The notes: generated from the sequence alone by a model not told the origin. 26,549 nt of DNA from a virus (IMGVR_UViG_3300011339_000624:1-26549); one strand, 5' to 3'; counted from the stretch's first letter, positions 5,100 to 25,737 are shown. Translations and numbers: made by a program.

Positions 5100-5139
5100 A
5101 TTCTCTCCACTTTTTTGTCGGTGTCACGTTTGCTTTCCC

Positions 5140-5215: not shown

Positions 5216-5243
5216 TAAGGACAACAGAAAAACAGGGGAGATT

Positions 5244-6380: not shown

Positions 6381-6602
6381 ATGAGCAAGATAAGATGGAA
6401 GGATGAAAAACAAACGGTAGAGTTTGTTCCAGTATTCATCATCGGTTTTGAAGAAGAGTTTGAACGCGGTGTAATAATGACAACAGCCGCGTACAAAATA
6501 CTAGACGAAGCTGAACCAGACTTCGCAGTCTACGCCATCGACGCAGCAATAGATATATTGATGCAGAGGCGGGACGAAATTGAAAAGAGGGAATTGCACT
6601 GA
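6381..6602 (+). CDS. Hypothetical protein
   Basis: In operon context; TGATG coupling to the primase gene. Confidence 0.7.
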   Translation: MSKIRWKDEKQTVEFVPVFIIGFEEEFERGVIMTTAAYKILDEAEPDFAVYAIDAAIDILMQRRDEIEKRELH

Positions 6603-9318: not shown

Positions 9319-9641
9319 TGTATGGGAACGATTTTATGCGATACAAAGAGATTCGTGATGCGCTCAATGAGGAGGCGCTCTGCGTCGAACCCTTCGATTG
9401 GGCGGATAGGGGTGCGGTGGATGTGGTCAATAGTCCACCGCACTATAAGTCTGGTGGCATCGAGGCCATCGAAGGTATCGAAGCGTCGATGGGGCCAGAG
9501 GCATATGCTGGCTACCTCAAGGGCAATATCATGAAATATATGTGGCGCTATGAAAGAAAAGGAAAGCCGATTGAGGACTTGAAGAAGGCCCGATGGTATC
9601 TTGACCGGCTAATTGGTTTACGCGAACGTAAAGCAGACTAA
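9318..9641 (+). CDS. DUF3310 protein (T7 gp1.7-like putative nucleotide kinase)
   Basis: VNSPPHY...IEAIE...GNIMKYMWRY..K...EDLKKARWYL. Confidence 0.88.
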   Translation: MYGNDFMRYKEIRDALNEEALCVEPFDWADRGAVDVVNSPPHYKSGGIEAIEGIEASMGPEAYAGYLKGNIMKYMWRYERKGKPIEDLKKARWYLDRLIGLRERKAD

Positions 9642-9664
9642 GGGGGCTTCGGCTCCCTTTTTTT
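9640..9664 (+). terminator. Rho-independent terminator
   Basis: AAGGGGGC-TTCG-GCTCCCTT followed by a T-run, directly after the DUF3310 stop. Confidence 0.85.
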
Positions 9665-9669
9665 GGTTT

Positions 9670-9948
9670 GGGGACGCATACGAGAAAGTTGGGGACGCTT
9701 TGGGGACGCTTCGGGGACGGATAAATATGAGGACTTCTGCGGTCGGGGACGGAAGGGACGGATAATTCTGACATGATTGGCTCTAATATAAGTAACAGTG
9801 TTACCCCTGGTCAAATAGCACTGTTACTTACATAGGCCAACAAACCGGCGTTCAAACCCGTCCCTTCCGTCCCGAGCCGCCTAGAAGCTGGGTTTTTGCC
9901 GTCCCCGATTTGTCCCCGTGGCGTCCCCGATTTTCTGAACCCGTCCCC
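9670..9948. repeat. Symmetric iteron array, putative replication origin
   Basis: Six GGGACG copies (9670-9760), six inverted (C/T)GTCCC copies (9859-9948), and a central 12-bp inverted repeat TAAGTAACAGTG / CACTGTTACTTA (9789-9830). Confidence 0.8.
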
Positions 9949-9963
9949 GATGGCAGTTTTCCG

Positions 9964-10497
9964 TTAATCGTCGTCAAAAACACCCGGCAAGTCGTCCGCA
10001 TCGAGATTATGAGAGCCGACTTGCTTGGGTGGTGTGATGTCGATGATGGTGGCGTCCTCGATGATGTCATGGGCTTCATGAGGATTTGATGACGCCAAGT
10101 TTAGCTGCTTCAGTGCATCAAGATGTAGTTGGTTCACGTTCACTTGAATTGCTGTGGCTGGCTTGGCTTGGAACCTGTCAGGGTTCGTAACACCAGCCAT
10201 CCATTTGCGTGTCTCGATCTTGAGCCTATCAGCGTTAGCTGAGTTGTTGTCCGAGGCATCGGCAATGTCCAAGCACTCATCCGCCCATTGCTCCGCCGCG
10301 ATTGACCGAGCTTGCTTGAACCGCTCCTCTCGGTTCGGGTCTTTGCGAATCCAATGGTAGAGGGATAGGTTGCTGATGTTCAGTTCACGGGCAAGGCCAG
10401 CCATCGTCAGGCCAGATGCGATCTTTTCCAGTAGGACAGTCTCTCCAACCTTGTCTAAGTTGGATGCAATCGTGCGGCGTTTAATATGTCCAGCCAT
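9964..10497 (-). CDS. terS: Terminase small subunit (Sf6 gp1-like)
   Basis: LEKIASG..MAGLAREL.IS..SLYHWI (HTH), FKQAR..AAEQWADECLDIAD, RLKIETRKWMAG...PDRF. Confidence 0.8.
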   Translation of the reverse strand: MAGHIKRRTIASNLDKVGETVLLEKIASGLTMAGLARELNISNLSLYHWIRKDPNREERFKQARSIAAEQWADECLDIADASDNNSANADRLKIETRKWMAGVTNPDRFQAKPATAIQVNVNQLHLDALKQLNLASSNPHEAHDIIEDATIIDITPPKQVGSHNLDADDLPGVFDDD

Positions 10498-10500
10498 GTC

Positions 10501-10593
10501 TTATCCTTTGAATACTGTTATAAGCCCATATAAAGCCCATAGAGAGGCATACATGGCGATTGCTAGGTTACGGTCACGATTATAGCTAGGCAT
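10501..10593 (-). CDS. 30-aa hydrophobic peptide (not in ORF track)
   Basis: MPSYNRDRNLAIAMYASLWALYGLITVFKG exactly fills the gap between the XRE gene and terS; GGGGG/GGAG upstream. Confidence 0.5.
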   Translation of the reverse strand: MPSYNRDRNLAIAMYASLWALYGLITVFKG

Positions 10594-10765
10594 GCTCCAG
10601 CCCCCTTAGAAACGTCTCTAAGAGGATAGAGACTGTAGCTGGCACTGGCCGACCACCTTGTTCATAATATCTTATCGACCTTTCGCACAGCCCTATCTTA
10701 TCAGCAAGCTGGCCTTGCGTCAGGTTTAGCCTGTCGCGTATCGCTTTGAACTCTTCATTTGTCAT
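10586..10765 (-). CDS. XRE/Cro-family HTH protein, 59 aa (not in ORF track)
   Basis: MTNEEFKAIRDRLNLTQGQLADKIGLCERSIRYYEQGGRPVP is a classic HTH_3 pattern; ATGA overlap with the upstream ORF. Confidence 0.85.
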   Translation of the reverse strand: MTNEEFKAIRDRLNLTQGQLADKIGLCERSIRYYEQGGRPVPATVSILLETFLRGLEHA

Positions 10766-10947
10766 GTCTCATCCTTCAATGCTGCTTCAGCGTCTTCGAT
10801 CAATTCTATGGGGGGCCAGCGCAGATAGCACACATGGTCTGCGGTTATTACGCCGAGGGATTCCAGATATTCCATCAAGCGGTAGGCCAAGGTGGCCTCT
10901 GCCCGTTCGGTGTATCGGTCAGGCAATGCGTCATCATCATCGATCAT
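10762..10947 (-). CDS. Hypothetical protein
   Basis: RBS AGGAG before the ATG at 10947 (MIDDDDALP...); ATGA overlaps on both sides. Confidence 0.65.
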   Translation of the reverse strand: MIDDDDALPDRYTERAEATLAYRLMEYLESLGVITADHVCYLRWPPIELIEDAEAALKDET

Positions 10948-11078
10948 TTGCGTTGCTCCTGTTCTTTGCGCCTTTCGGCAAAGGTTTTTCCATCCAAGCC
11001 GCGCAGTGGCCAAGCACTGTCTGACGATACTCGATGACCACGCTTTAAGGGCGCGGCCTGTGCTGGTATCTTAATCAT
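10944..11078 (-). CDS. Hypothetical 44-aa basic protein (not in ORF track)
   Basis: MIKIPAQAAPLKRGHRVSSDSAWPLRGLDGKTFAERRKEQEQRK overlaps both neighbouring ORFs. Confidence 0.55.
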   Translation of the reverse strand: MIKIPAQAAPLKRGHRVSSDSAWPLRGLDGKTFAERRKEQEQRK

Positions 11079-11277
11079 GCTGCGGGGTTCCCATCTGTGC
11101 TTTAAGCGCCAAAATTAAGGCTTCATACTCTACCGCTAGGTCATAGTATGTTCCGGCGCGGATTTCGTGGCCCATTTCATCGGCCCGTGCTGCTTTCTCA
11201 AAACAATCTGAACGCACATCATCCAGTGTTGCAAGGATCGTAAGCAATTGCAGGGTGGTTAGCTCTAGTTTGTGCAT
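11071..11277 (-). CDS. Hypothetical protein
   Basis: RBS AAGGGG; tight operon packing. Confidence 0.65.
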   Translation of the reverse strand: MHKLELTTLQLLTILATLDDVRSDCFEKAARADEMGHEIRAGTYYDLAVEYEALILALKAQMGTPQHD

Positions 11278-11278
11278 G

Positions 11279-11563
11279 TTAGGCCCCTTCTACCACTGTG
11301 AAGACATAGCCCGTTCCCTTGGCGTTGCCGCCTTGCGTCCATGTGCCAGTGTTCCAGATTGAGCGGCTACCGCCATGCTTCAAGGCTAGGGCCGTCATCT
11401 TCTCAATCAAGGCCAAGGCGGCGGCTTTGTGTGCGCCGTCACTGTTTAGTTCATGGTCATAGCCGATTGTGATGTTGCCGCCCCAGCATTCCGCTTTGAT
11501 GCGTCCGCCTTTGGTATTGGTAGGGCCAAGGTATTTGGTTTCGATTGCTTGATAGATTGTCAT
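11279..11563 (-). CDS. Hypothetical phage protein (QAIETKYLGPTNTKGGRIKA motif)
   Basis: AG-rich RBS; the N-terminal motif resembles a recurrent uncharacterised phage protein. Confidence 0.75.
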   Translation of the reverse strand: MTIYQAIETKYLGPTNTKGGRIKAECWGGNITIGYDHELNSDGAHKAAALALIEKMTALALKHGGSRSIWNTGTWTQGGNAKGTGYVFTVVEGA

Positions 11564-11628
11564 AATATCTCTCTCTTTATTGGCACTAGCGCCAGCCTCG
11601 CGGCGGATTGCTCCGCCGTCCGGTGGTG

Positions 11629-11838
11629 TTAGCTAACGAATGCGCCACCCTTGTTTAGTATGCGCTCAACGGCGGGCCATGAATATTCGACATCGCCACC
11701 CTTGCCGCTCAACAGGCGGACAACACCGTATGTGTTGCGCGCACCAGCCATTGCAGCAATCTCTCCGTCAAGGGTGATGCCCATTGCATTTGCCTTGTCT
11801 ACTAGGACGAAACGATAGTCGCGGGTTGCTTGTGCCAT
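11629..11838 (-). CDS. Hypothetical protein
   Basis: RBS AAAGG; operon packing. Confidence 0.65.
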   Translation of the reverse strand: MAQATRDYRFVLVDKANAMGITLDGEIAAMAGARNTYGVVRLLSGKGGDVEYSWPAVERILNKGGAFVS

Positions 11839-11839
11839 G

Positions 11840-12022
11840 TCAGTTGCCTTTCTTTGCGGTGTTTAATGCGCGGGCCGCTTCCTTGTGTCCTTCAAGAAAC
11901 AACCAAGTGATAGCGGTGTCGGTGTCTGCGAAATAACGTAGGCGCTTGACGCTTTCGTCACTTAGCAAGAATTGGTCATTACTCTGCCAGCCGTGCCAAT
12001 CGTCATGTGTAAATGAAACCAT
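11840..12022 (-). CDS. Hypothetical protein
   Basis: RBS AAGGGAG; operon packing. Confidence 0.65.
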   Translation of the reverse strand: MVSFTHDDWHGWQSNDQFLLSDESVKRLRYFADTDTAITWLFLEGHKEAARALNTAKKGN

Positions 12023-12024
12023 GA

Positions 12025-12123
12025 TTATTCTCCCTTATCGTTACTGGTAAACAGTGAGACACTGGCCAACATGCCTAGTATCCACAAAAATATGAATGCG
12101 TTGAATGGTAGATAGGCTTCCAT
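12025..12123 (-). CDS. 32-aa single-TM peptide (not in ORF track)
   Basis: MEAYLPFNAFIFLWILGMLASVSLFTSNDKGE fills the gap between neighbours; RBS GGGGG. Confidence 0.55.
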   Translation of the reverse strand: MEAYLPFNAFIFLWILGMLASVSLFTSNDKGE

Positions 12124-12124
12124 G

Positions 12125-12313
12125 TTACGCGCCCCCATTTAACTTGTGGCGGATGTCGTCGATTGTTTCGGTATAAAAACCTATACCTAACGCGGGCAAT
12201 GTATTGCCATCAAAATCATCGACAAGGCGGGCAGCATAGGCGCGGCCTGGTGTGTCGATGCAAGTGCGGCGGATAGTCCAGCGGCGGTTTGCGATGTCTA
12301 CATAGTCAATCAT
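12125..12313 (-). CDS. Hypothetical protein
   Basis: RBS GGGGAG; operon packing. Confidence 0.65.
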   Translation of the reverse strand: MIDYVDIANRRWTIRRTCIDTPGRAYAARLVDDFDGNTLPALGIGFYTETIDDIRHKLNGGA

Positions 12314-12315
12314 GA

Positions 12316-12501
12316 TTACTCCCCTTGTGTTGCGTAGTTAGCGACGAATGCGGTGCAACGTTTACATTCGCGGGGTGATAGCCACATCGCCGAATGGTCG
12401 ATTGCTACGTCAAGGCGGGCCAGCCTATCGGCGAATGGTATGTCGTGGCGTTCAAGGTTAGCGGTGTAACGTTCGAACGCGGTAAGGTTAGCTAGTCGCA
12501 T
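12316..12501 (-). CDS. Hypothetical protein, first gene of the leftward operon
   Basis: AAAGAGAGAGA precedes the ATG at 12501 (MRLANL...); the longer track start overlaps the promoter. Confidence 0.6.
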   Translation of the reverse strand: MRLANLTAFERYTANLERHDIPFADRLARLDVAIDHSAMWLSPRECKRCTAFVANYATQGE

Positions 12502-12534
12502 GGTTAGTCTCTCTCTTTCGTGGTTGAGGTAATA

Positions 12535-12563
12535 CCAATAGGCATGCCGTGCCTGTTGGTCAA
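12535..12563 (-). promoter_or_regulatory. Putative sigma70 promoter of the leftward operon
   Basis: TTGACC-N17-TATTGG, with the dyad AGGCA-N5-TGCCT in the spacer. Confidence 0.5.
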
Positions 12564-12582
12564 TAACAACAACAACCATTAT

Positions 12583-12984
12583 GGTTCTATTATTAGAACC
12601 GATATGGTTCCTTTATATAATCACATTATAATGTGCGCGCCTTGCCCCTATATATAATAATGCCGGAACGATGTGCCTATTTATAGTGGAGAATAGAGAC
12701 CGCCAGTCGTCGTTTCTTGTGCGCCTCTGCGCCCCTTTGGTCGCTTACTAATACACTGTTACACCGTGAAACGCGCAGACATACGTGCTTTTTTATATAG
12801 GGGGGCGGGGGTAGCAATTAATTTATACCCCCCCCGCCCCTGCCTTGCGCGGGGGGCGTGTGCGTAGTACTAAACAGACATCGAGGTGTGACCCCCTCCC
12901 CCCTACCCCCTATGTTTTTCGCACCCAATCCAAAAAAATTGTATAATTTTCCCCTTGCCAAGTTGTAACATTAGAGTGTAACAG
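12583..12984. promoter_or_regulatory. Divergent control region with palindromes and G/C runs (candidate res/pac region)
   Basis: GGTTCTA-TTAT-TAGAACC, the perfect palindrome CACATTATAATGTG, GGGGCGGGGG...CCCCCGCCCC, and TGTAACA repeats. Confidence 0.55.
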
Positions 12985-13014
12985 CGATGGATAACCAAAA
13001 AGAGGAGAAATACG

Positions 13015-13695
13015 TTGGCTGTTTATGGATACACTCGCGTCTCAACTGAAGACCAGATTGAGAACACATCGCTCGATGACCAAGCCCGCCAAATCCAAGG
13101 CATCGTGCTCACACACAACTTGGAACTGGACCATATCTACGAAGAGCGTGGCGTCTCCGGCGGTGTTCCGCTGCTACGCCGAGAAGAAGGCTGCAAGCTA
13201 GCGTTCCTTCGCCCAGGCGATACGGTTATCGTCTCCAAGCTGGACCGTATGTTCCGGGACGCACGGGACGCACTAAACGTGATTGCCGACTGGGAGACGG
13301 CAAACATCAATCTCATTATCAATGGCTATGGCAATGTCATGGACAAGGCCAACCCGAACGGACGGTTTATGCTAGAGATCATGGCCGTCTTTTCAGGGGA
13401 AGAGCGCCGCCGTATTAGAGAACGTGTCACCGCCGGTAAGAGAGCGAAGAGTTCGCAGGGCGGATATGTCGGTGGCAAAGTGCCATTTGGATTTAAGAAG
13501 ACGGGCGTAGGCCGCAAGGCCAAGCTGCACCCAGAGCCAAACGCCCAAGACGCGCTCATCACCATGAAAGCCGCTCGCGTTAAAGGCCATAGCTACCGCG
13601 ATATTGCTATTATCGTAGCAAAGCGTCATGGTATTACGGTTAGCCATCAAACAATTGCACGGGTAATCAGGGGAGATAAGAATGCCGAAGTCTGA
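13015..13695 (+). CDS. Serine recombinase (resolvase/invertase family)
   Basis: YGYTRVSTEDQ (catalytic Ser), ERGVSG, GDTVIVSKLDRMFR, ERRRIRER..AG, GGKVPFGF and a C-terminal HTH. TTG start with RBS GAGGAG. Confidence 0.93.
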   Translation: MAVYGYTRVSTEDQIENTSLDDQARQIQGIVLTHNLELDHIYEERGVSGGVPLLRREEGCKLAFLRPGDTVIVSKLDRMFRDARDALNVIADWETANINLIINGYGNVMDKANPNGRFMLEIMAVFSGEERRRIRERVTAGKRAKSSQGGYVGGKVPFGFKKTGVGRKAKLHPEPNAQDALITMKAARVKGHSYRDIAIIVAKRHGITVSHQTIARVIRGDKNAEV

Positions 13696-15091
13696 GCCAA
13701 ACTTCTTTCTGGAGTTTCTGAAGAAGTATCGCGATGATCCCGTCGGATTCGTGCGTGATATTCTAAGAACCAAACCGGACCCCTGGCAAATCGAGTTCTT
13801 AAAAGCGATTAGTTCAGGCAACCGCCGTATCTCAGTCCGATCAGGCCACGGCGTCGGCAAATCGACTGCCGCAAGCTGGGCCATGCTGCATTACTTTCTG
13901 ACGCGGTATCCCGTGAAGGTTGTCGTGACTGCGCCGACATCTGCACAGTTGTTCGATGCAATGTTCGCGGAACTGAAGCGATGGGTGAATGAACTACCTG
14001 AAGTTCTGAAGGTTCTGATCGAGGTGAAGGCCGACCGTATCGAACTAAAGGCTGCGTCGAGTGAAGCCTTTATCTCCGCCAGAACGAGCCGCGCAGAAAC
14101 GCCGGAAGCGTTGCAGGGTATCCACGCCGACAACGTGCTTCTTGTAGCGGATGAGGCGTCAGGTATTCCAGAGAGTGTGTATGAAGCTGCGTCCGGTTCT
14201 ATGTCGGGCCACAATGCGACGACGCTTCTTCTGGGCAACCCTACCCGAAACAGTGGTTTGTTCTACGATACGCACAACCGTCTGAAGGGTGAATGGAAAA
14301 CCTTCCACGTTAGCTGTCTTGACAGCCCGCGTGTGTCGGATGCGTTTGTCCGAGAGATGCAGCTACGGTACGGTGAGGATAGTCCCGCCTACCATGTGCG
14401 TGTCCTTGGTAACTTCCCGCCGCGGGAAGAAGATACGGTTATTCCTGTCGAGTTGATTGACAGCGCCATGAACCGCGAGATTAAGATCGCCAAGCAGACG
14501 CGAAGTGTGTGGGGCCTAGACGTTGCGCGTATGGGTTCCGATGCTTCCGCGTTAGCCAAAAGGCGCGGCCCAGTTGTCGAAGAGATACAGACTTGGAAAG
14601 GTCTGGACCTTATGCAACTAACCGGCGCGGTTGTAGCGGAGTTTGAGGCGCTGCCGCCGTCCGAGCAACCCGTTGAAATATTAGTAGATAGTATCGGGTT
14701 GGGAGCCGGTGTGCTTGACCGTCTGCGCGAACTGGGCCTGCCAGCGCGTGGGATCAACGTCGCTGAAAGCCCCGCGATGAAAGGGACTTACGCCAACCTA
14801 CGCGCCGAGTTGTGGTTCAAGTGCAAAGGATGGCTGGCGAACCGCGATGTGAAGATACCAAAGGATGAACAGTTGTTCGCCGAGTTGGCGTCGCCGCGTT
14901 ACACCTTTACCTCTTCTGGCAAGATGCAAGTAGAGAGCAAGGAGAGCATGAAGAAGCGGGGGCTTCCCTCGCCAGATAAGGCGGATGCGCTGTGTCTATG
15001 CTTGGCCACCGATGTATCTACTATTATGCACGGCTACTCTATGGCTAACAAGAGTGGAGCCTTGCGTAGAAATATAAAGGGCATTGTTTGA
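13682..15091 (+). CDS. terL: Terminase large subunit
   Basis: PDPWQ, Walker A RSGHGVGKS, Walker B LVADEASG, LLGNP, nuclease motifs GLDVARMGSD and SPDKADAL. Confidence 0.95.
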   Translation: MPKSEPNFFLEFLKKYRDDPVGFVRDILRTKPDPWQIEFLKAISSGNRRISVRSGHGVGKSTAASWAMLHYFLTRYPVKVVVTAPTSAQLFDAMFAELKRWVNELPEVLKVLIEVKADRIELKAASSEAFISARTSRAETPEALQGIHADNVLLVADEASGIPESVYEAASGSMSGHNATTLLLGNPTRNSGLFYDTHNRLKGEWKTFHVSCLDSPRVSDAFVREMQLRYGEDSPAYHVRVLGNFPPREEDTVIPVELIDSAMNREIKIAKQTRSVWGLDVARMGSDASALAKRRGPVVEEIQTWKGLDLMQLTGAVVAEFEALPPSEQPVEILVDSIGLGAGVLDRLRELGLPARGINVAESPAMKGTYANLRAELWFKCKGWLANRDVKIPKDEQLFAELASPRYTFTSSGKMQVESKESMKKRGLPSPDKADALCLCLATDVSTIMHGYSMANKSGALRRNIKGIV

Positions 15092-15115
15092 CATAGAATA
15101 AAGATGTGATATATT
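15088..15115 (+). promoter_or_regulatory. Near-consensus sigma70 promoter
   Basis: TTGACA-N16-TATATT with an extended -10 TG. Confidence 0.65.
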
Positions 15116-15120
15116 TGTTT

Positions 15121-15258
15121 TGCTCGGCAGGTTTTTCTCTCTCTCCCTCTCCTGCCGGGCATCATAGGCAGCTAGGGTGTGCGCGGTTTAGCCGGTAATA
15201 GCGACAGAACGACAGGATGCTGCCCCGTTTGTTCGTCCCGCCGCCACCCTCTTTTTGC
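15121..15258 (+). ncRNA. Candidate small structured RNA
   Basis: Begins at the expected start site of the upstream promoter. Has an 11-bp stem with a 19-nt all-pyrimidine loop and a second long stem AGGGTG...CACCCT followed by a T-run. No credible ORF. Confidence 0.5.
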
Positions 15259-15283
15259 TTTTCTGTTAATGTTATGCTATAGT
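15255..15283 (+). promoter_or_regulatory. Putative promoter for the endonuclease VII / head operon
   Basis: TTGCTT-N17-TATAGT with an extended -10 TG. Confidence 0.55.
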
Positions 15284-15303
15284 TATTCACAGGGGGCGTA
15301 CCT

Positions 15304-15729
15304 GTGGATACTAAAACTTGTCCGACATGTGGCGAAGAAAAGCCAATTGAAAACTTCTATCCTCAGAAGCGGCAATGCAGGATATGTATACGCGACCACC
15401 AACGCCGCTTCAGAGCCGCACGCCCAGACTATCACCACGGTCGAAACCTTAAACAGCGATACGGTATTACTGTCGATGAGTATGAAACTATCATCGCCAG
15501 TCAAAATTCTGCTTGCGCTATTTGTAAGGTAGAAATACCTGATACAATAGGCTATAAGGGAAAGCGACCAGTTGCTGTTGACCACAACCACGAGACAGGT
15601 GAGGTTCGCGGCATACTCTGCTTGAAGTGTAATTTAGTTCTTGGCCACGCAAGAGAGAATACAGATATTCTTTACTGGGCTATTGTGTACTTGAGTGAGC
15701 GTGGCGCATACGCACCGAAAGGTAGATGA
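15304..15729 (+). CDS. Endonuclease VII-family protein
   Basis: N-terminal CxxC...CxxC, YGITVDEY, CAIC, VDHNHETGEVRGILCLKCN. Confidence 0.9.
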   Translation: MDTKTCPTCGEEKPIENFYPQKRQCRICIRDHQRRFRAARPDYHHGRNLKQRYGITVDEYETIIASQNSACAICKVEIPDTIGYKGKRPVAVDHNHETGEVRGILCLKCNLVLGHARENTDILYWAIVYLSERGAYAPKGR

Positions 15730-15730
15730 C

Positions 15731-15913
15731 ATGAAGAAGATGGACGCAGCCAAGAAGATTGGCAAAGTAATGGGCGAATATAAAAAGGGTACGTTGCACG
15801 CTGGTGTAAACCCTAAAGGCCCCGCAAAGGCTCCCTTAGCTAAATCGCGCAAACAGGCTATAGCTATTGCTATGTCTGAAGCGGGTATGAGCAAGAAGAT
15901 GAAAAAGAAATAA
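15731..15913 (+). CDS. Small basic protein (DUF6496-like)
   Basis: KVMGEYKKGTLH...SRKQAIAIAMSEA. Confidence 0.7.
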   Translation: MKKMDAAKKIGKVMGEYKKGTLHAGVNPKGPAKAPLAKSRKQAIAIAMSEAGMSKKMKKK

Positions 15914-16176
15914 TGGAAACCCAAAAGTTTCTAGGACGTAATCAATTGGTAGATAGACTTGCTGCGCAAGTTGGCGACCGAGATATGGCCGTAGGGCTTT
16001 TAATAAAGAACGGGCTGATGACAGCCGATGGTAAGTTAACTGCCCAAGGCCACGCCCGTAATGCTATGACTGCTGAAGAGCGTGCAGTTGATCGTGCGGT
16101 GAAACGTAGTGGTAAAAGTCACGGGGATTATGTATACAGCCCCAATACTAACCGCGCCACATTACGGAAGAGATAG
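15913..16176 (+). CDS. Hypothetical protein
   Basis: TAATG coupling; abuts the portal gene. Confidence 0.7.
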   Translation: METQKFLGRNQLVDRLAAQVGDRDMAVGLLIKNGLMTADGKLTAQGHARNAMTAEERAVDRAVKRSGKSHGDYVYSPNTNRATLRKR

Positions 16177-16179
16177 TAA

Positions 16180-18597
16180 ATGGCATATCGCAGTAACCGT
16201 AAACCTACCAAGGCCCAAATGGCTAAGAACAACCGTATGTATCAAGACACGGGTGTTCCTAATTCTAATTCGGAAAACGAAGACGGCGAAGATATGTCCG
16301 ACGAAACTTCGATGGAACTTCCTGACGGTACGGAAATTTCTATTGAAGGCCCAGAAATGGAAGACGAGCAGGTAGAAGAACCTGTATCTGAAGAAGACCT
16401 TCAGAATATTATCACCGCCGAAATTGATGATGCGCAAGAATATATCGACGACATCATCTCGCCGCAGCGTGCGCTTGCTGGCCAGTACTATAAAGGCGAA
16501 CCTTTCGGCAACGAAGAAGAAGGCCGTTCGCAGGCTATCTCTATGGATGTACGCGATACTGTACAGGCCATGATGCCGTCGATCATGCGCGTATTCTTTG
16601 CTGCGAACAATGTTGTCGAGTTTGCGCCGAACGGTCCAGAGGATATTGAGAACGCCGCGCAAGCTACAGAGTATGTTAACTACTGCCTGACACGCGACAA
16701 CAACCTTTTCAACGAATGCCATTCAACATTCAAGGACGCGCTGATCCGTAAGAACGGGATCATGAAAGTCTGGTGGAATGACGACAAAGACATCACGACT
16801 CATAAGTTTACTGGCCTAGACGAAGCTACGTTCTCGGTCCTTCAGTCCGATACTACCGTCGAAGTTAAGGACGTAGAGATTACTTACGGCGAAGCGCCAA
16901 TGATGCCGCCAGAGATGGAGGGTATGGTGGACCCAATGGGTATGCCCCCCCCCACGCCCCCACCACCGCCCGCAATGTACGACTGCACCGTTGTTCGTAC
17001 AGTTGAGAAGGGCCGTCTGTGCGTTCAGTCCGTACCGCCAGAAGAGTTTTTGATTGACCGCCGTGCGCGCTCGATTGAGACAGCCGAATTTGTAGCTCAC
17101 CGTCGCTACGTTACGGTATCCGATCTTGTGAAGATGGGCTACGATTTCGATGAGGTCCAAGACCTTGGCTATGAAACGACGGATGACTTTGGCGGTAACG
17201 AAGAAGCATTCGACCGTAACCCGCAAGCCTTTGTTAATATCACAGGCCGCACCGACACGTCCTCGCGTAGAGTTCTTTACATTGAGGGCTATGTGTACGT
17301 TGACATGGACGGCGACGGGATTGCGGAACTTTGCCGCGTCTGCGTTGCTGGCTCGGCTAACAAAGTTCTGCATTGGGAACCTTGCGACTTTATTCCGTTT
17401 GTAGACTTCTGCCCTGATCCTGAGCCACATACCTTCTTTGGCATGTCGATGGCCGACGTGACGATGGACATTCAGCTTATCAAGTCAAACATCCTGCGTA
17501 ACACGCTCGACAGTTTGGCCCAGTCGATTCACCCGCGTACTGGCGTTGTTGAAGGCCAAGTAAACATCGAAGACGTGATGAACACCGAAGTCGGTGGCAT
17601 CATTCGTATGCGTGCGCCTGGTATGGTGCAGCCGTTTACTATTCCTTTTGTTGGCCAGCAAGCGTTCCCGATGTTGCAGTACATGGACGAACTGCGCGAG
17701 AACCGTACAGGTATCTCAAAGGCTGCGGCTGGCTTGGACGCAAACGCGCTTCAGTCTTCGACCCGCGCTGCGGTTGCGGCTACGATCTCTGCTGCGGCGC
17801 AGCATATCGAACTGATCTGCCGTATCTTTGCCGAGACAGGTATGAAGAACCTGTTCCGTAAATCAATGCAGCTTATCTCCAAGAACCAAGACGCGCCCCG
17901 CATGGTCCGTCTGCGCAATAAGTTTGTCCCGATTGACCCGCGTGTATGGGACGCGAATATGGATGTTGTTGTTAACGTCGCTATCGGCGTTGGCAGCAAT
18001 GAAGAGAAGATGGCGTTCTTAGGCCAAGTCGCGCAGAAGCAAGAGATGCTTATGCAGATGGGCGGACCGCTGGCCGACATGCAGGGCTACTACAATACCC
18101 TAGCCCAGATGATGGCATTGGCCGGGTACAAAGACCCGACTGTATTCTTCAACGACCCAGCCACGATGCCGCCCCCCCCTCCACCCGCCCCCCCCCCGCC
18201 GACACCAGAAGAGATGCTGGCCCAGGTTCAGATGGAATCAATCCGCGCTGACATCCAAAAGAAAGCAGCCGATCTTGAATTGCAGCGCGAAGACATGCTG
18301 CGCAAGGACGACCGTGAGCGCGACAAACTTGACGCCGACCTTATGATTAAGGCCGCTGAGATTGAAGCCAAGTACGGCACACCGGTTAACACGGCCAGCA
18401 TTGAAGAAATGATTATGCGTGATCGTGAAATGGTGCGCCAGCAAGAAGAAATGCAGCGCGCCGCTATGCAGGCCCAACAGGATGCGCAGATGGCGCAGGC
18501 CCAGCAGGCCCAGCAGATGGCGCAGGCAGTTCAACAAGCACAGATGCAACCTGAAATGCCGATGCAACCTGAACTCCCCCCAGAAGGTATGGTGTAA
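16180..18597 (+). CDS. Portal protein (P22-like podovirus type)
   Basis: 805 aa after terL, with YYKGEP..NEEEGRSQ, AAQATEYVNY, FKDALIRKNGIMKVWW, VPPEEFLID, ENRTGIS and a coiled-coil C-terminus. Confidence 0.9.
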   Translation: MAYRSNRKPTKAQMAKNNRMYQDTGVPNSNSENEDGEDMSDETSMELPDGTEISIEGPEMEDEQVEEPVSEEDLQNIITAEIDDAQEYIDDIISPQRALAGQYYKGEPFGNEEEGRSQAISMDVRDTVQAMMPSIMRVFFAANNVVEFAPNGPEDIENAAQATEYVNYCLTRDNNLFNECHSTFKDALIRKNGIMKVWWNDDKDITTHKFTGLDEATFSVLQSDTTVEVKDVEITYGEAPMMPPEMEGMVDPMGMPPPTPPPPPAMYDCTVVRTVEKGRLCVQSVPPEEFLIDRRARSIETAEFVAHRRYVTVSDLVKMGYDFDEVQDLGYETTDDFGGNEEAFDRNPQAFVNITGRTDTSSRRVLYIEGYVYVDMDGDGIAELCRVCVAGSANKVLHWEPCDFIPFVDFCPDPEPHTFFGMSMADVTMDIQLIKSNILRNTLDSLAQSIHPRTGVVEGQVNIEDVMNTEVGGIIRMRAPGMVQPFTIPFVGQQAFPMLQYMDELRENRTGISKAAAGLDANALQSSTRAAVAATISAAAQHIELICRIFAETGMKNLFRKSMQLISKNQDAPRMVRLRNKFVPIDPRVWDANMDVVVNVAIGVGSNEEKMAFLGQVAQKQEMLMQMGGPLADMQGYYNTLAQMMALAGYKDPTVFFNDPATMPPPPPPAPPPPTPEEMLAQVQMESIRADIQKKAADLELQREDMLRKDDRERDKLDADLMIKAAEIEAKYGTPVNTASIEEMIMRDREMVRQQEEMQRAAMQAQQDAQMAQAQQAQQMAQAVQQAQMQPEMPMQPELPPEGMV

Positions 18598-23343: not shown

Positions 23344-24206
23344 TGCCTGATACAACAACTTCAAACCTTGGCCTTACCAAACCAGAGATTGGCGCGTCTG
23401 CCGATAGCTGGGGTAATAAGCTAAACGCTGACCTTGATCTAGTCGATGCGCTCTTTGCAGCCGCAGGTACAGGGACAAGCGTCGGCGTTAATGTAGGTGC
23501 GGGCAAGACACTTGCTGTTGCGGGGACGTTGAACGCCACTGGCGCAGTGACTGGCGGTGTTATCGCTCCGCTTGCATCGCCAACATTTACTGGCACGGTT
23601 GTTCTACCTTCGACGACAAGCATCGGCGGCGTTAGCGCAACGGAACTGGTTTACCTCGACGGTGTAACGTCGAACGTCCAGACGCAGCTTGATGCTAAAC
23701 TAGCTATCTCGGCGGCAGCATCGACATACGCGCCCCTCGCCAGCCCAAGCCTGACGGGCGTACCGACTGCCCCTACCGCCGCTGCTTCGACCAGCACAAC
23801 GCAGATCGCTACCACAGCGTTTGTCGATACTAGCTTTGCGAAGCTTGCGTCTCCTGCGTTCACTGGAACGCCGACTGCGCCAACCGCTGCGTTTGGCGCT
23901 AACAACACTACAGTCGCCACAACTGCGTTTGTGCAACAGGTTGCGCTTAACAATCAGCTTCCGTTGCAGGCGGGCAACGCTGGTAAGTTTCTTACTACTG
24001 ATGGGTCCAACGCAAGTTTTGCGACTATCACGATCCCAGCGCAAGTCTACCCAGCCGCTGGCCTTGCCGTCTCAACGGGAACTGCATGGGGAACATCTGT
24101 TGCCCCAGGCACAACCGGGCAGGTGCTAACCAGCGACGGAACCAATTGGGTTTCTGGTTCCGCACCATCCACATCATACACCACACTTATGAAATTCGGT
24201 CTGTAA
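23343..24206 (+). CDS. Tail fibre protein
   Basis: N-terminal TTSNLGLTKPEIGASADSWG anchor, repeated LASP.(F/L)TG.PTAPT...ATTAFV and G..G..LT.DG motifs. Confidence 0.8.
   Translation: MPDTTTSNLGLTKPEIGASADSWGNKLNADLDLVDALFAAAGTGTSVGVNVGAGKTLAVAGTLNATGAVTGGVIAPLASPTFTGTVVLPSTTSIGGVSATELVYLDGVTSNVQTQLDAKLAISAAASTYAPLASPSLTGVPTAPTAAASTSTTQIATTAFVDTSFAKLASPAFTGTPTAPTAAFGANNTTVATTAFVQQVALNNQLPLQAGNAGKFLTTDGSNASFATITIPAQVYPAAGLAVSTGTAWGTSVAPGTTGQVLTSDGTNWVSGSAPSTSYTTLMKFGL
23727..23933 (+). repeat. Tandem ~36-codon tail-fibre repeat
   Basis: YAPLASPSLTGVPTAPTAAASTSTTQIATTAFV and FAKLASPAFTGTPTAPTAAFGANNTTVATTAFV. Confidence 0.8.
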
Positions 24207-25473: not shown

Positions 25474-25737
25474 ATGCTTACAAATCCAATTCGAGGAAAA
25501 GCTGGAAAGCAGATTGTCGCCGTATCTCCGGCCAACCCAACGGTAATGTATACCGTTCCTACCGGGAAGTATTGCGAGATAGCGTTAGTACCCGCAAACA
25601 TAACCATTACCGCTAATGGTGTGACTTCAGCAACTACAGTGGCAACCGCAGTGCCGATGGTGCTGCAAGCAGGCACAGTAGTCACGGGTGTATCAAGCTC
25701 CGGTGTAGTCTTTATTGGCACGGAGTATGACGCATGA
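25474..25737 (+). CDS. Small putative virion protein
   Basis: MYTVPTGK...FIGTEY; RBS AAGGA. Confidence 0.6.
   Translation: MLTNPIRGKAGKQIVAVSPANPTVMYTVPTGKYCEIALVPANITITANGVTSATTVATAVPMVLQAGTVVTGVSSSGVVFIGTEYDA

Follow-up and report, generated by a model that had tools for sequence, protein, structure and literature searches.

The question raised at this locus is what is done by the non-coding stretch that lies between terL (13682-15091) and the endonuclease VII gene. The window, meaning the whole 26,549 nucleotides analysed, is a 26.5-kb virus record with a completeness of about 70%. Its genes include a replication block (helicase, ssDNA-binding protein, exonuclease, DNA polymerase, D5-like regulator, and primase), terS, several small genes clustered on the minus strand, a serine recombinase, terL, endonuclease VII, and a portal-scaffold-capsid-tail unit. 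The recombinase is resolvase-type (PF00239; 13015-13695, + strand) and is encoded directly upstream of terL in all lineages. The terms early and late are assigned here by gene type and position, the minus-strand small genes being early by assumption. The nearest cultured terL match is the Sinorhizobium phage phiM5 at 56%, from which our guess is an alphaproteobacterial host; matches of terL, polA, and the regulator named no host. A first-pass annotation had nominated the region downstream of terL as a small RNA whose pyrimidine loop pairs with ribosome binding sites (RBSs), and all the coordinates it gave for this element are correct on re-reading. We find it rather probable that the element is an RNA of about 135 nt whose loop pairs with the phage's own early and replication RBSs, likely blocking translation, and probably late in infection.

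Relatives were gathered through terL by six scans, four of viral and metagenome sequence and two by pattern, plus an endonuclease search. This gives 338 loci at 85% terL identity or above, many being the same contig twice, and the 330 with enough downstream DNA reduce to 104 distinct sequences. Type A, the kind found in the window, accounts for 80 of the 104. An automatic test for a hairpin with a CU-rich loop is passed by 100/104 distinct terL-downstream sequences versus 1/21 distinct outgroup sequences. Among the 24 sequences that are not type A (types B and C, terL 86-91% identical), 23 retain the promoter position, the CU-rich loops, and the terminator, with three plain hairpins in place of the type-A scaffold; in the B lineages the loops of the three hairpins are unlike one another. 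The remaining sequence, L432, has a deletion. In a terL tree, type A is one well-supported branch and B1 is another, with C unresolved.

The near-consensus promoter is placed at the terL stop, as annotated. The TTGACA at 15088-15093 contains the TGA of terL, and a 16-nt spacer leads to TG-n-TATATT with the hexamer at 15110-15115, making a predicted sigma-70-type promoter with an extended -10 (15088..15115, + strand; 11/12 consensus matches). It is the best of the 8 sites returned by a promoter scan of 9500-16500, although that count does not exceed what shuffles give on average (6.7). The TTGAC at the terL stop is kept in 80/80 distinct type-A sequences, and the B and C lineages have a -35/-10 pair in the same place as judged by eye. 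Outgroup L092 also has such a pair at its terL stop, there ahead of a structural gene. The predicted 3′ end is a U-run at 15251..15262 (+ strand) that is retained in type-A relatives; in the B and C lineages, the element ends with a classical GC hairpin and U-run. The RNA between these ends has a predicted length of about 135 nt. A promoter for the next gene had been annotated as well. A TTGCTT-17-TATAGT can be read from the sequence and from relatives (15255..15283, + strand), in position to serve endonuclease VII and the structural genes, but it falls below the threshold of the promoter scan and is best called promoter-like.

As to what form the RNA takes, it may be a free transcript, a late-operon leader released by attenuation, or a 3′ end processed from the terL mRNA, and action in trans would be possible for all of these. 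The phage is contained in 22 sequencing runs, 4 of them recorded as RNA, all as contigs without ends or strand. Seven runs were aligned to the window, and those that share only a small part with it carry no evidential weight. In run X1, the best RNA library, the 9.7 kb repeat region and the gap at 12.6-12.9 kb are about as deep as the genes. Since these stretches are presumably silent, X1 contains DNA.

Repeats elsewhere in the window deserve mention in their own right. After the kinase terminator, at about 9660-9960, there is an array of GGGGACG, first direct and then inverted (CGTCCCC), with an AT-richer center, which has the look of a replication origin. At about 12790-12900, in the gap that separates the divergent early cluster from the recombinase-terL unit, there are long runs of G and of C. 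The phiM5 terminal repeat has similar G/C runs, and those of the window are possibly a genome end or packaging site.

Hairpin 1 (15121..15161, + strand) has the 11-bp stem (15121-15131/15151-15161) and 19-nt pyrimidine loop that had been described for it. The loop, at 15132..15150, is the putative seed, with the core CUCUCCCUC and an expanded UC run before it, and both its conservation and its co-variation with RBSs point to that role. The loop core CTCTCCCTC is present in 80/80 distinct type-A sequences; the UCUCUCUCU run, a local expansion, and TCTCTCTCT are seen in 5/80. A variable linker follows at 15162..15173 (+ strand), with length and sequence differing widely in the type-A alignment. 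For the window sequence alone, the fold is modestly unusual, with z -1.73 and 15/200 shuffles equally good. The alignment is more telling. A set of 30 diverse type-A sequences picked by hand has 98.1% of cells paired and 10 pairs with two-sided changes, values reached by 0/500 shuffles, with slid controls at 34-65%. In hairpin 1, 99.4% of cells are paired and 8/11 pairs have compensatory two-sided changes. It has 28 G-U cells and only 2 unpaired ones, from which the folded strand can be read as +. Covariation of the stem and conservation of the loop core, which the first-pass annotation had named as the check to make in relatives, are thus both seen within type A.

Past the linker, that annotation had a second stem, AGGGTG at 15174 with CACCCT at 15245, followed by a T-run. 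These are present as described, but the stem is not a simple one and instead closes a three-way junction (15174..15250, + strand). P1 is 15174-15183/15242-15250, P2 is 15185-15193, the invariant junction RRUAAUA is 15194-15200, and P3 with a dispensable extension is 15201-15241, all on the + strand. RNAalifold yields the same three-way junction unprompted. The core is weakly supported by covariation because its pairs are nearly invariant; outside the core, the P3 arm does covary and is dispensable, its extension being reduced to 3 nt in L005, L006, and L038. A model of the junction domain, R1, matches only type-A genomes (35 sources), with no second copy and none in B, C, or outgroup genomes. 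A search with the junction pattern in 46/64 parts of the viral contigs finds 119 loci, all of which are of the window's lineage or lack the flanking stems on inspection, and in genome contigs there are 4 matches, one being the same phage in a metagenome-assembled genome (MAG) and three being weak. Because the sister lineages have plain hairpins instead, the junction likely serves for stability or for binding a protein. It may resemble the SRP Alu U-turn or helices 43-44 of 23S rRNA, a likeness given no weight here. Two further observations concern this domain. In many type-A relatives, the variable loop of P3 contains CUCC as a second short motif, where the window has CUGCCCC (15214-15226). 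In L432, a deletion fuses the linker after hairpin 1 to the interior of the endonuclease gene with loss of the junction domain, which may be an assembly chimera.

The comparisons establish, at the level of sequence, that this is a real, conserved RNA element with a defined fold, strand, and clade-wide place between a promoter-like site and a U-run. Rfam covariance models give nothing at gathering score in the window, with only mir-BART16 (E 2.7) in 15000-15400; ARAGORN has no match in the window, and blastn of the element against GenBank phages gives chance matches only (E 0.2-0.8). A collection of 8,495 DNA-virus candidate structured RNAs from IMG/VR is described in PMC10690425, and the element may be among its unannotated candidates; 3/6 of the supplementary files contain no match to four motif spellings and two sample ids. 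The marine-type outgroup (terL about 64%; L453, L456-L458, L460, and L467) has a different conserved multi-hairpin non-coding stretch after terL.

The position between terL and portal, together with the type-A three-way junction, had raised the alternative of a packaging RNA like the pRNA of phi29, acting with the terminase and portal. That alternative is disfavored and strikes us as very improbable indeed. The scaffold is replaced among lineages whose terminases are 86-91% identical, and the RNA is absent from outgroups, where the terminase is 48-71% identical. No conserved self-complementary loop pair is seen in the alignments, and a packaging role would leave the RBS co-variation described below unexplained.

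What the loop may pair with was first suggested by two minus-strand sites, 11568-11576 and 12508-12516. These AGAGAGAGA sites are the only 9-nt loop complements in the window and are positioned 4 and 6 nt ahead of ATGs. Both are predicted targets: the first is the RBS of the early gene 11563-11279 (9 bp, -14.4 kcal/mol as a loop-only duplex), with AGAGGGA or GGGAAGAGA in orthologs, and the second is the RBS of the early gene starting at 12501 (9 bp, -14.3 kcal/mol as a loop-only duplex), with orthologs having GAGGGAGA in type A, GGAGUGC in B2, and AGAGGAGG in C4. The 7-nt matches annotated near 5101 and 12028 are real, being found at 5101-5108 and 12029-12035 and corresponding to predicted targets at the RBS of DNA polymerase A (5102..5108, - strand, 7 bp) and of the early gene 12022-11840 (12029..12035, - strand, 7 bp). 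Predicted targets on the + strand are the RBSs of the D5-like regulator (5235..5241, start 5244; type-A orthologs GAGGGAG or AGGGAGA), primase (6586..6592, 7 bp; type-A orthologs AGAGGGA(G)), and serine recombinase (13001..13010, 6 contiguous bp in the window). The terL RBS GGGGAGA (13670..13676, + strand), which would pair with one G-U and is conserved in type A, is a possible target.

In the window, 6/20 non-structural RBSs match the loop by at least 7 nt versus 0/16 structural or terS RBSs, the capsid, scaffold, portal, and tail RBSs being mostly AAGG-type. This contrast was dropped as standalone evidence, since four annotated outgroup phages without the RNA show it too, having GGAG in 36/120 non-structural versus 14/93 structural RBSs. 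Nor does the window alone show an excess of pairing over shuffled loops (p=0.12 for the count of matches of at least 7 nt, p=0.61 for mean match, p=0.64 for energy). The caution that any CU-rich loop will match purine-rich SD sites by chance is therefore right for one genome, as both the shuffled loops and the outgroup phages bear out; an excess over controls appears only across lineages.

One can draw from the single-genome result that the RNA is chiefly a generic anti-SD weapon against host mRNAs, with matches to the phage's own sites as a by-product of purine-rich RBSs. Non-cognate loops do match by 6 nt or more in up to 15/32 outgroup non-structural RBSs, and the window loop has no excess over shuffled loops. 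A weapon should nevertheless avoid the phage's own sites, and it does not predict that these sites track the loop lineage by lineage, including in letters that are not SD, such as GGAGUGCG/CGCACUCC. We consider this reading quite unlikely.

The tracking can be examined because loops differ among lineages, which allows cognate pairing to be compared with non-cognate pairing. The serine recombinase RBS is the ortholog that tracks the loop most clearly (p 0.0007-0.0009, 10 lineages). Its RBS and loop read GGGAGA/UCUCCC in type A, GGAGUGCG/CGCACUCC in B2, GAAAGGGA/UCCCUUUC in B4, CAAGAGGA/UCCUCUUG in B5, GAGGAGA/UCUCCUC in C1, C3, and C5, and AAGGAGA/UCUCCUU in C2. The DNA polymerase RBS is AGAGGGA in A, GAGGAGA in C, and GAAAGGGA in B4; the helicase RBS is GAGAGGGA in A versus GAAAGGGAAG in B4, where it pairs by 10 bp; and B1 early genes have a repeated GGAAAGGA with the loop UCCUUUCC. 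The two AGAGAGAGA sites of the window stand where orthologs have AGAGGGA or GAGGGAGA, matching the expanded UC run. AGAGAGA-type early RBSs are found in 2/30 type-A loci, both with long UC runs, which is too few for testing.

The co-variation test used 46/338 loci, picked for upstream length, in 10 lineages whose groups were drawn by the analyst. Starts were called by a script blind to the loops, row and column means were removed (two-way normalization), and pairing energies are for loop-only duplexes with mRNA structure ignored. With the true loop assignment, early and recombinase RBSs of the 10 lineages give p=1.5e-5 when scored on match length and 5e-6 when scored on energy, whereas structural RBSs in the same 10-lineage test give p=0.24 and 0.58. 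The lineages being compared are related, and when they are merged to 6 or 5 the true pairing comes first among all label permutations (1 of 720 and 1 of 120), the structural RBSs then ranking 295-365 of 720. Overlapping cognate 7-mer hits at -20..-1 number 189 over 330 non-structural starts versus 1 over 118 structural starts, and the five windows other than -20..-1 rank 59-717 of 720. A separate gene set, the replication-block genes of 8 long records, gives ranks 5, 21, and 3 of 720, with RBS matches of at least 7 nt in 26/97 replication-block versus 3/174 structural RBSs. Structural RBSs of those records rank 585-704 of 720, a slight hint that they avoid cognate loops. The tracking is not uniform. 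The cognate cell is the best in its row in only 5-6 of 10 lineages, C-lineage RBSs pair with the type-A loop in raw scores as well as its own RBSs do, and in G008 0/12 replication RBSs match by 7 nt or more.

Taken across lineages, these results make good comparative evidence for predicted pairing of the loop with the phage's own non-structural RBSs, as the first-pass annotation had proposed for an RNA acting in trans. Compensatory change that links a loop to sites on other transcripts, at distances of 2-10 kb, would be best explained by RNA-RNA pairing in trans. The features in general expected of a trans-acting sRNA are found here in the DNA: promoter, terminator, non-coding sequence, conserved fold, exposed seed, and seed-target complementarity maintained by compensatory change.

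A more modest explanation is that the element only separates terL from the structural operon as a terminator or leader, its loop being either an inverted copy of a repeated early-RBS element with no pairing function or a cis regulator of endonuclease VII. The position does require a terminator, the endonuclease VII gene is 3′ of the element in 10/10 loci checked and directly adjoins it in 9/10, and the type-A endonuclease VII RBS AGGGAG matches the loop by 6 nt. That match, however, is 4 nt in the window and 3-5 nt to the own loop in most B and C loci, and in L372 an extra gene intervenes before endonuclease VII. A neutral copy would not persist in the loop of a covarying stem, nor be re-tuned in at least 6 lineages. 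We hold this explanation to be highly unlikely. As a side observation, the endonuclease VII RBS and GTG start (15288-15306, + strand) are within a hairpin CACAGG/CCTGTG that is retained with different sequences in relatives, and it probably keeps the nuclease level low.

As to what pairing would accomplish, the proposed course is that the element is transcribed as a discrete RNA of about 135 nt, that its loop would form 7-10 bp with target mRNAs, and that a duplex over the SD region would exclude the ribosome and repress translation, as with anti-SD-loop sRNAs such as NfeR1. The RNA would then act as an early-to-late switch from which the capsid, scaffold, portal, and tail RBSs escape, and host mRNAs with matching sites would probably be affected too. 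Repression, by this analogy, and a late switch are likely. The opposite sign can be argued from the two best window targets, which combine weak canonical SD pairing (-5.2 and -5.3 kcal/mol) with the strongest loop pairing (-14.3 and -14.4), and from the coincidence of loop sites with the SD position. The RNA would then activate translation, as a second anti-SD supplied by the phage or by opening an inhibitory structure. In one version, each lineage's loop would switch on its own weak-SD early genes as a private translation code, with the junction docking on the ribosome. But 7-10 bp of duplex spanning -17..-5 should keep the 30S subunit off, and the junction, the only candidate module for binding the ribosome, is missing from lineages B and C. 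Moreover, NfeR1 loops of like kind are described as repressing (PMC10746234). Activation is therefore very doubtful in our estimate, and the private code version is equally so.

The timing of the proposed repression is the weakest step, as sigma-70-like promoters leave timing unfixed. Late action is suggested because the promoter occupies the place where the structural operon starts in the outgroup and no integrase was found; structural RBSs without loop sites also point that way. A site in type A at terL, a late function, speaks against a late switch. The same pairing and repression could instead be early or constitutive, holding the lytic program down in a carrier or plasmid-prophage state and giving same-lineage immunity, like P1 c4 RNA. 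Consistent with this are a promoter near the host consensus, a resolvase-type serine recombinase, targets among which are the genes that open the early operon and both replication operons, and lineage-specific tags that look like immunity groups. Against it, a search for a tyrosine integrase finds none in 9/9 related records, 7 of which have a completeness of 90% or more; close relatives within the genome collection are solely short MAG contigs, and a polA scan of that collection finds none. In addition, structural RBSs pair slightly worse with cognate loops (704 of 720), as expected if the RNA and late mRNAs coexist. We judge early or constitutive action unlikely, and keep late repression as the preferred reading.

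Two outgroup phages have hairpins that can be noted here. L475 (MW202496.1) has, near 23613 (-), a strong hairpin with a CU-rich loop between a gene like that of ssDNA-binding protein and DNA polymerase, possibly an analogous RNA. In phiM5 (L473), a + strand hairpin with a UUUUCCUUCC loop is near 25688, upstream of the primase gene. The B4 loop is similar to this phiM5 loop, and phiM5 RBSs match the B4 loop by at least 6 nt in 15/32 non-structural versus 3/22 structural cases. Being cultured, phiM5 is a phage where such an RNA could be sought.

If late repression by pairing is true, this would be a compact developmental switch made of RNA only, in which an RBS tag common to an entire class of the phage's own mRNAs is the address and each lineage has adjusted both tag and loop. 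In T4, by contrast, early-to-late translational control uses a protein nuclease, and described phage sRNAs address single regulatory genes or the host. The natural loop/tag pairs (A, B1, B2, B4, B5, and C) provide a swap matrix for host-free reporter work and a possible set of orthogonal translational repressors.

Among known systems, the closest in appearance are the cuckoo or alpha-r14 sRNAs of Alphaproteobacteria (NfeR1, CcsR/RSs0680), hairpins with variable stems that expose CU-rich anti-SD loops (PMC4615179, PMC10746234), NfeR1 being described as silencing by RBS occlusion (PMC10746234). The element shares the hairpin exposing such a loop, but identity with a cuckoo RNA is rejected on motif, architecture, and Rfam. 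In the account available to us in PMC4615179, cuckoo RNAs have an invariant CCUCCUCCC on 2-4 hairpins and target host mRNAs. Type A has instead the core CUCUCCCUC (80/80), with the B and C loops differing again, and it has one seed hairpin plus a three-way junction. Unlike the cuckoo motif, that of the phage RNA varies by lineage and tracks the phage's own RBSs, and it has no Rfam match.

Phage antisense RNAs that control their own genes include P1 c4 (PMC8201110) and Sar, OOP, aQ, and 24B_1 (PMC12197685). As presented in the parts of those sources at hand, each acts on one regulatory gene or operon of a temperate phage, mostly as cis antisense, whereas here one loop is predicted to reach about a quarter to half of non-structural genes in trans. 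Identity with the c4 antisense RNA of P1/P7 is rejected, there being no Rfam match and no antirepressor family among the 41 proteins of the window, which is about 70% of the genome. VpdS of VP882 and PreS of lambda are trans-acting phage sRNAs favoring lytic growth (PMC12197685), and as portrayed in what we have of that review they are Hfq-dependent, act mainly on host targets or by Hfq competition, and have no shared-RBS regulon. The phage sRNAs in the same 2025 review, to the extent of the text at hand, act on single genes or host targets (PMC12197685), and the accessible portion of a Pseudomonas phage transcriptome study has ncRNA candidates without functions (10.1101/2023.10.13.562163). 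Our literature search, with most subscription journals outside its scope, found no published account of this RNA or of an RBS-tag regulon of a phage sRNA.

A functional likeness is offered by the RegB endoribonuclease of T4, described as inactivating early mRNAs at a tag in the SD region and easing the shift to later stages (PMC9409239). The likeness is in the predicted outcome only, early mRNAs inactivated at an SD tag. RegB, as that source is available to us, is a protein that cleaves GGAG/U with S1 as a helper, and the phage RNA would act by base-pairing with a tag that differs between lineages; no RegB PHROG is found among the best 5 families for each of the 41 window proteins. For the tag itself, the parallel is found in cluster K mycobacteriophages, some of whose genes have an extended RBS tag particular to the phage, the start-associated sequences or SAS (PMC3203893). 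In the sections of that paper available to us, the authors did not decide between an RNA and a protein as the binding partner and recorded a single site on the opposite strand, with no partner RNA or co-variation shown, and the phages and sequences are unrelated to those of the window. Pairing of an RNA with a tag, as proposed here, suggests what might bind the start-associated sequences of other phages, and the suggestion can be tested.
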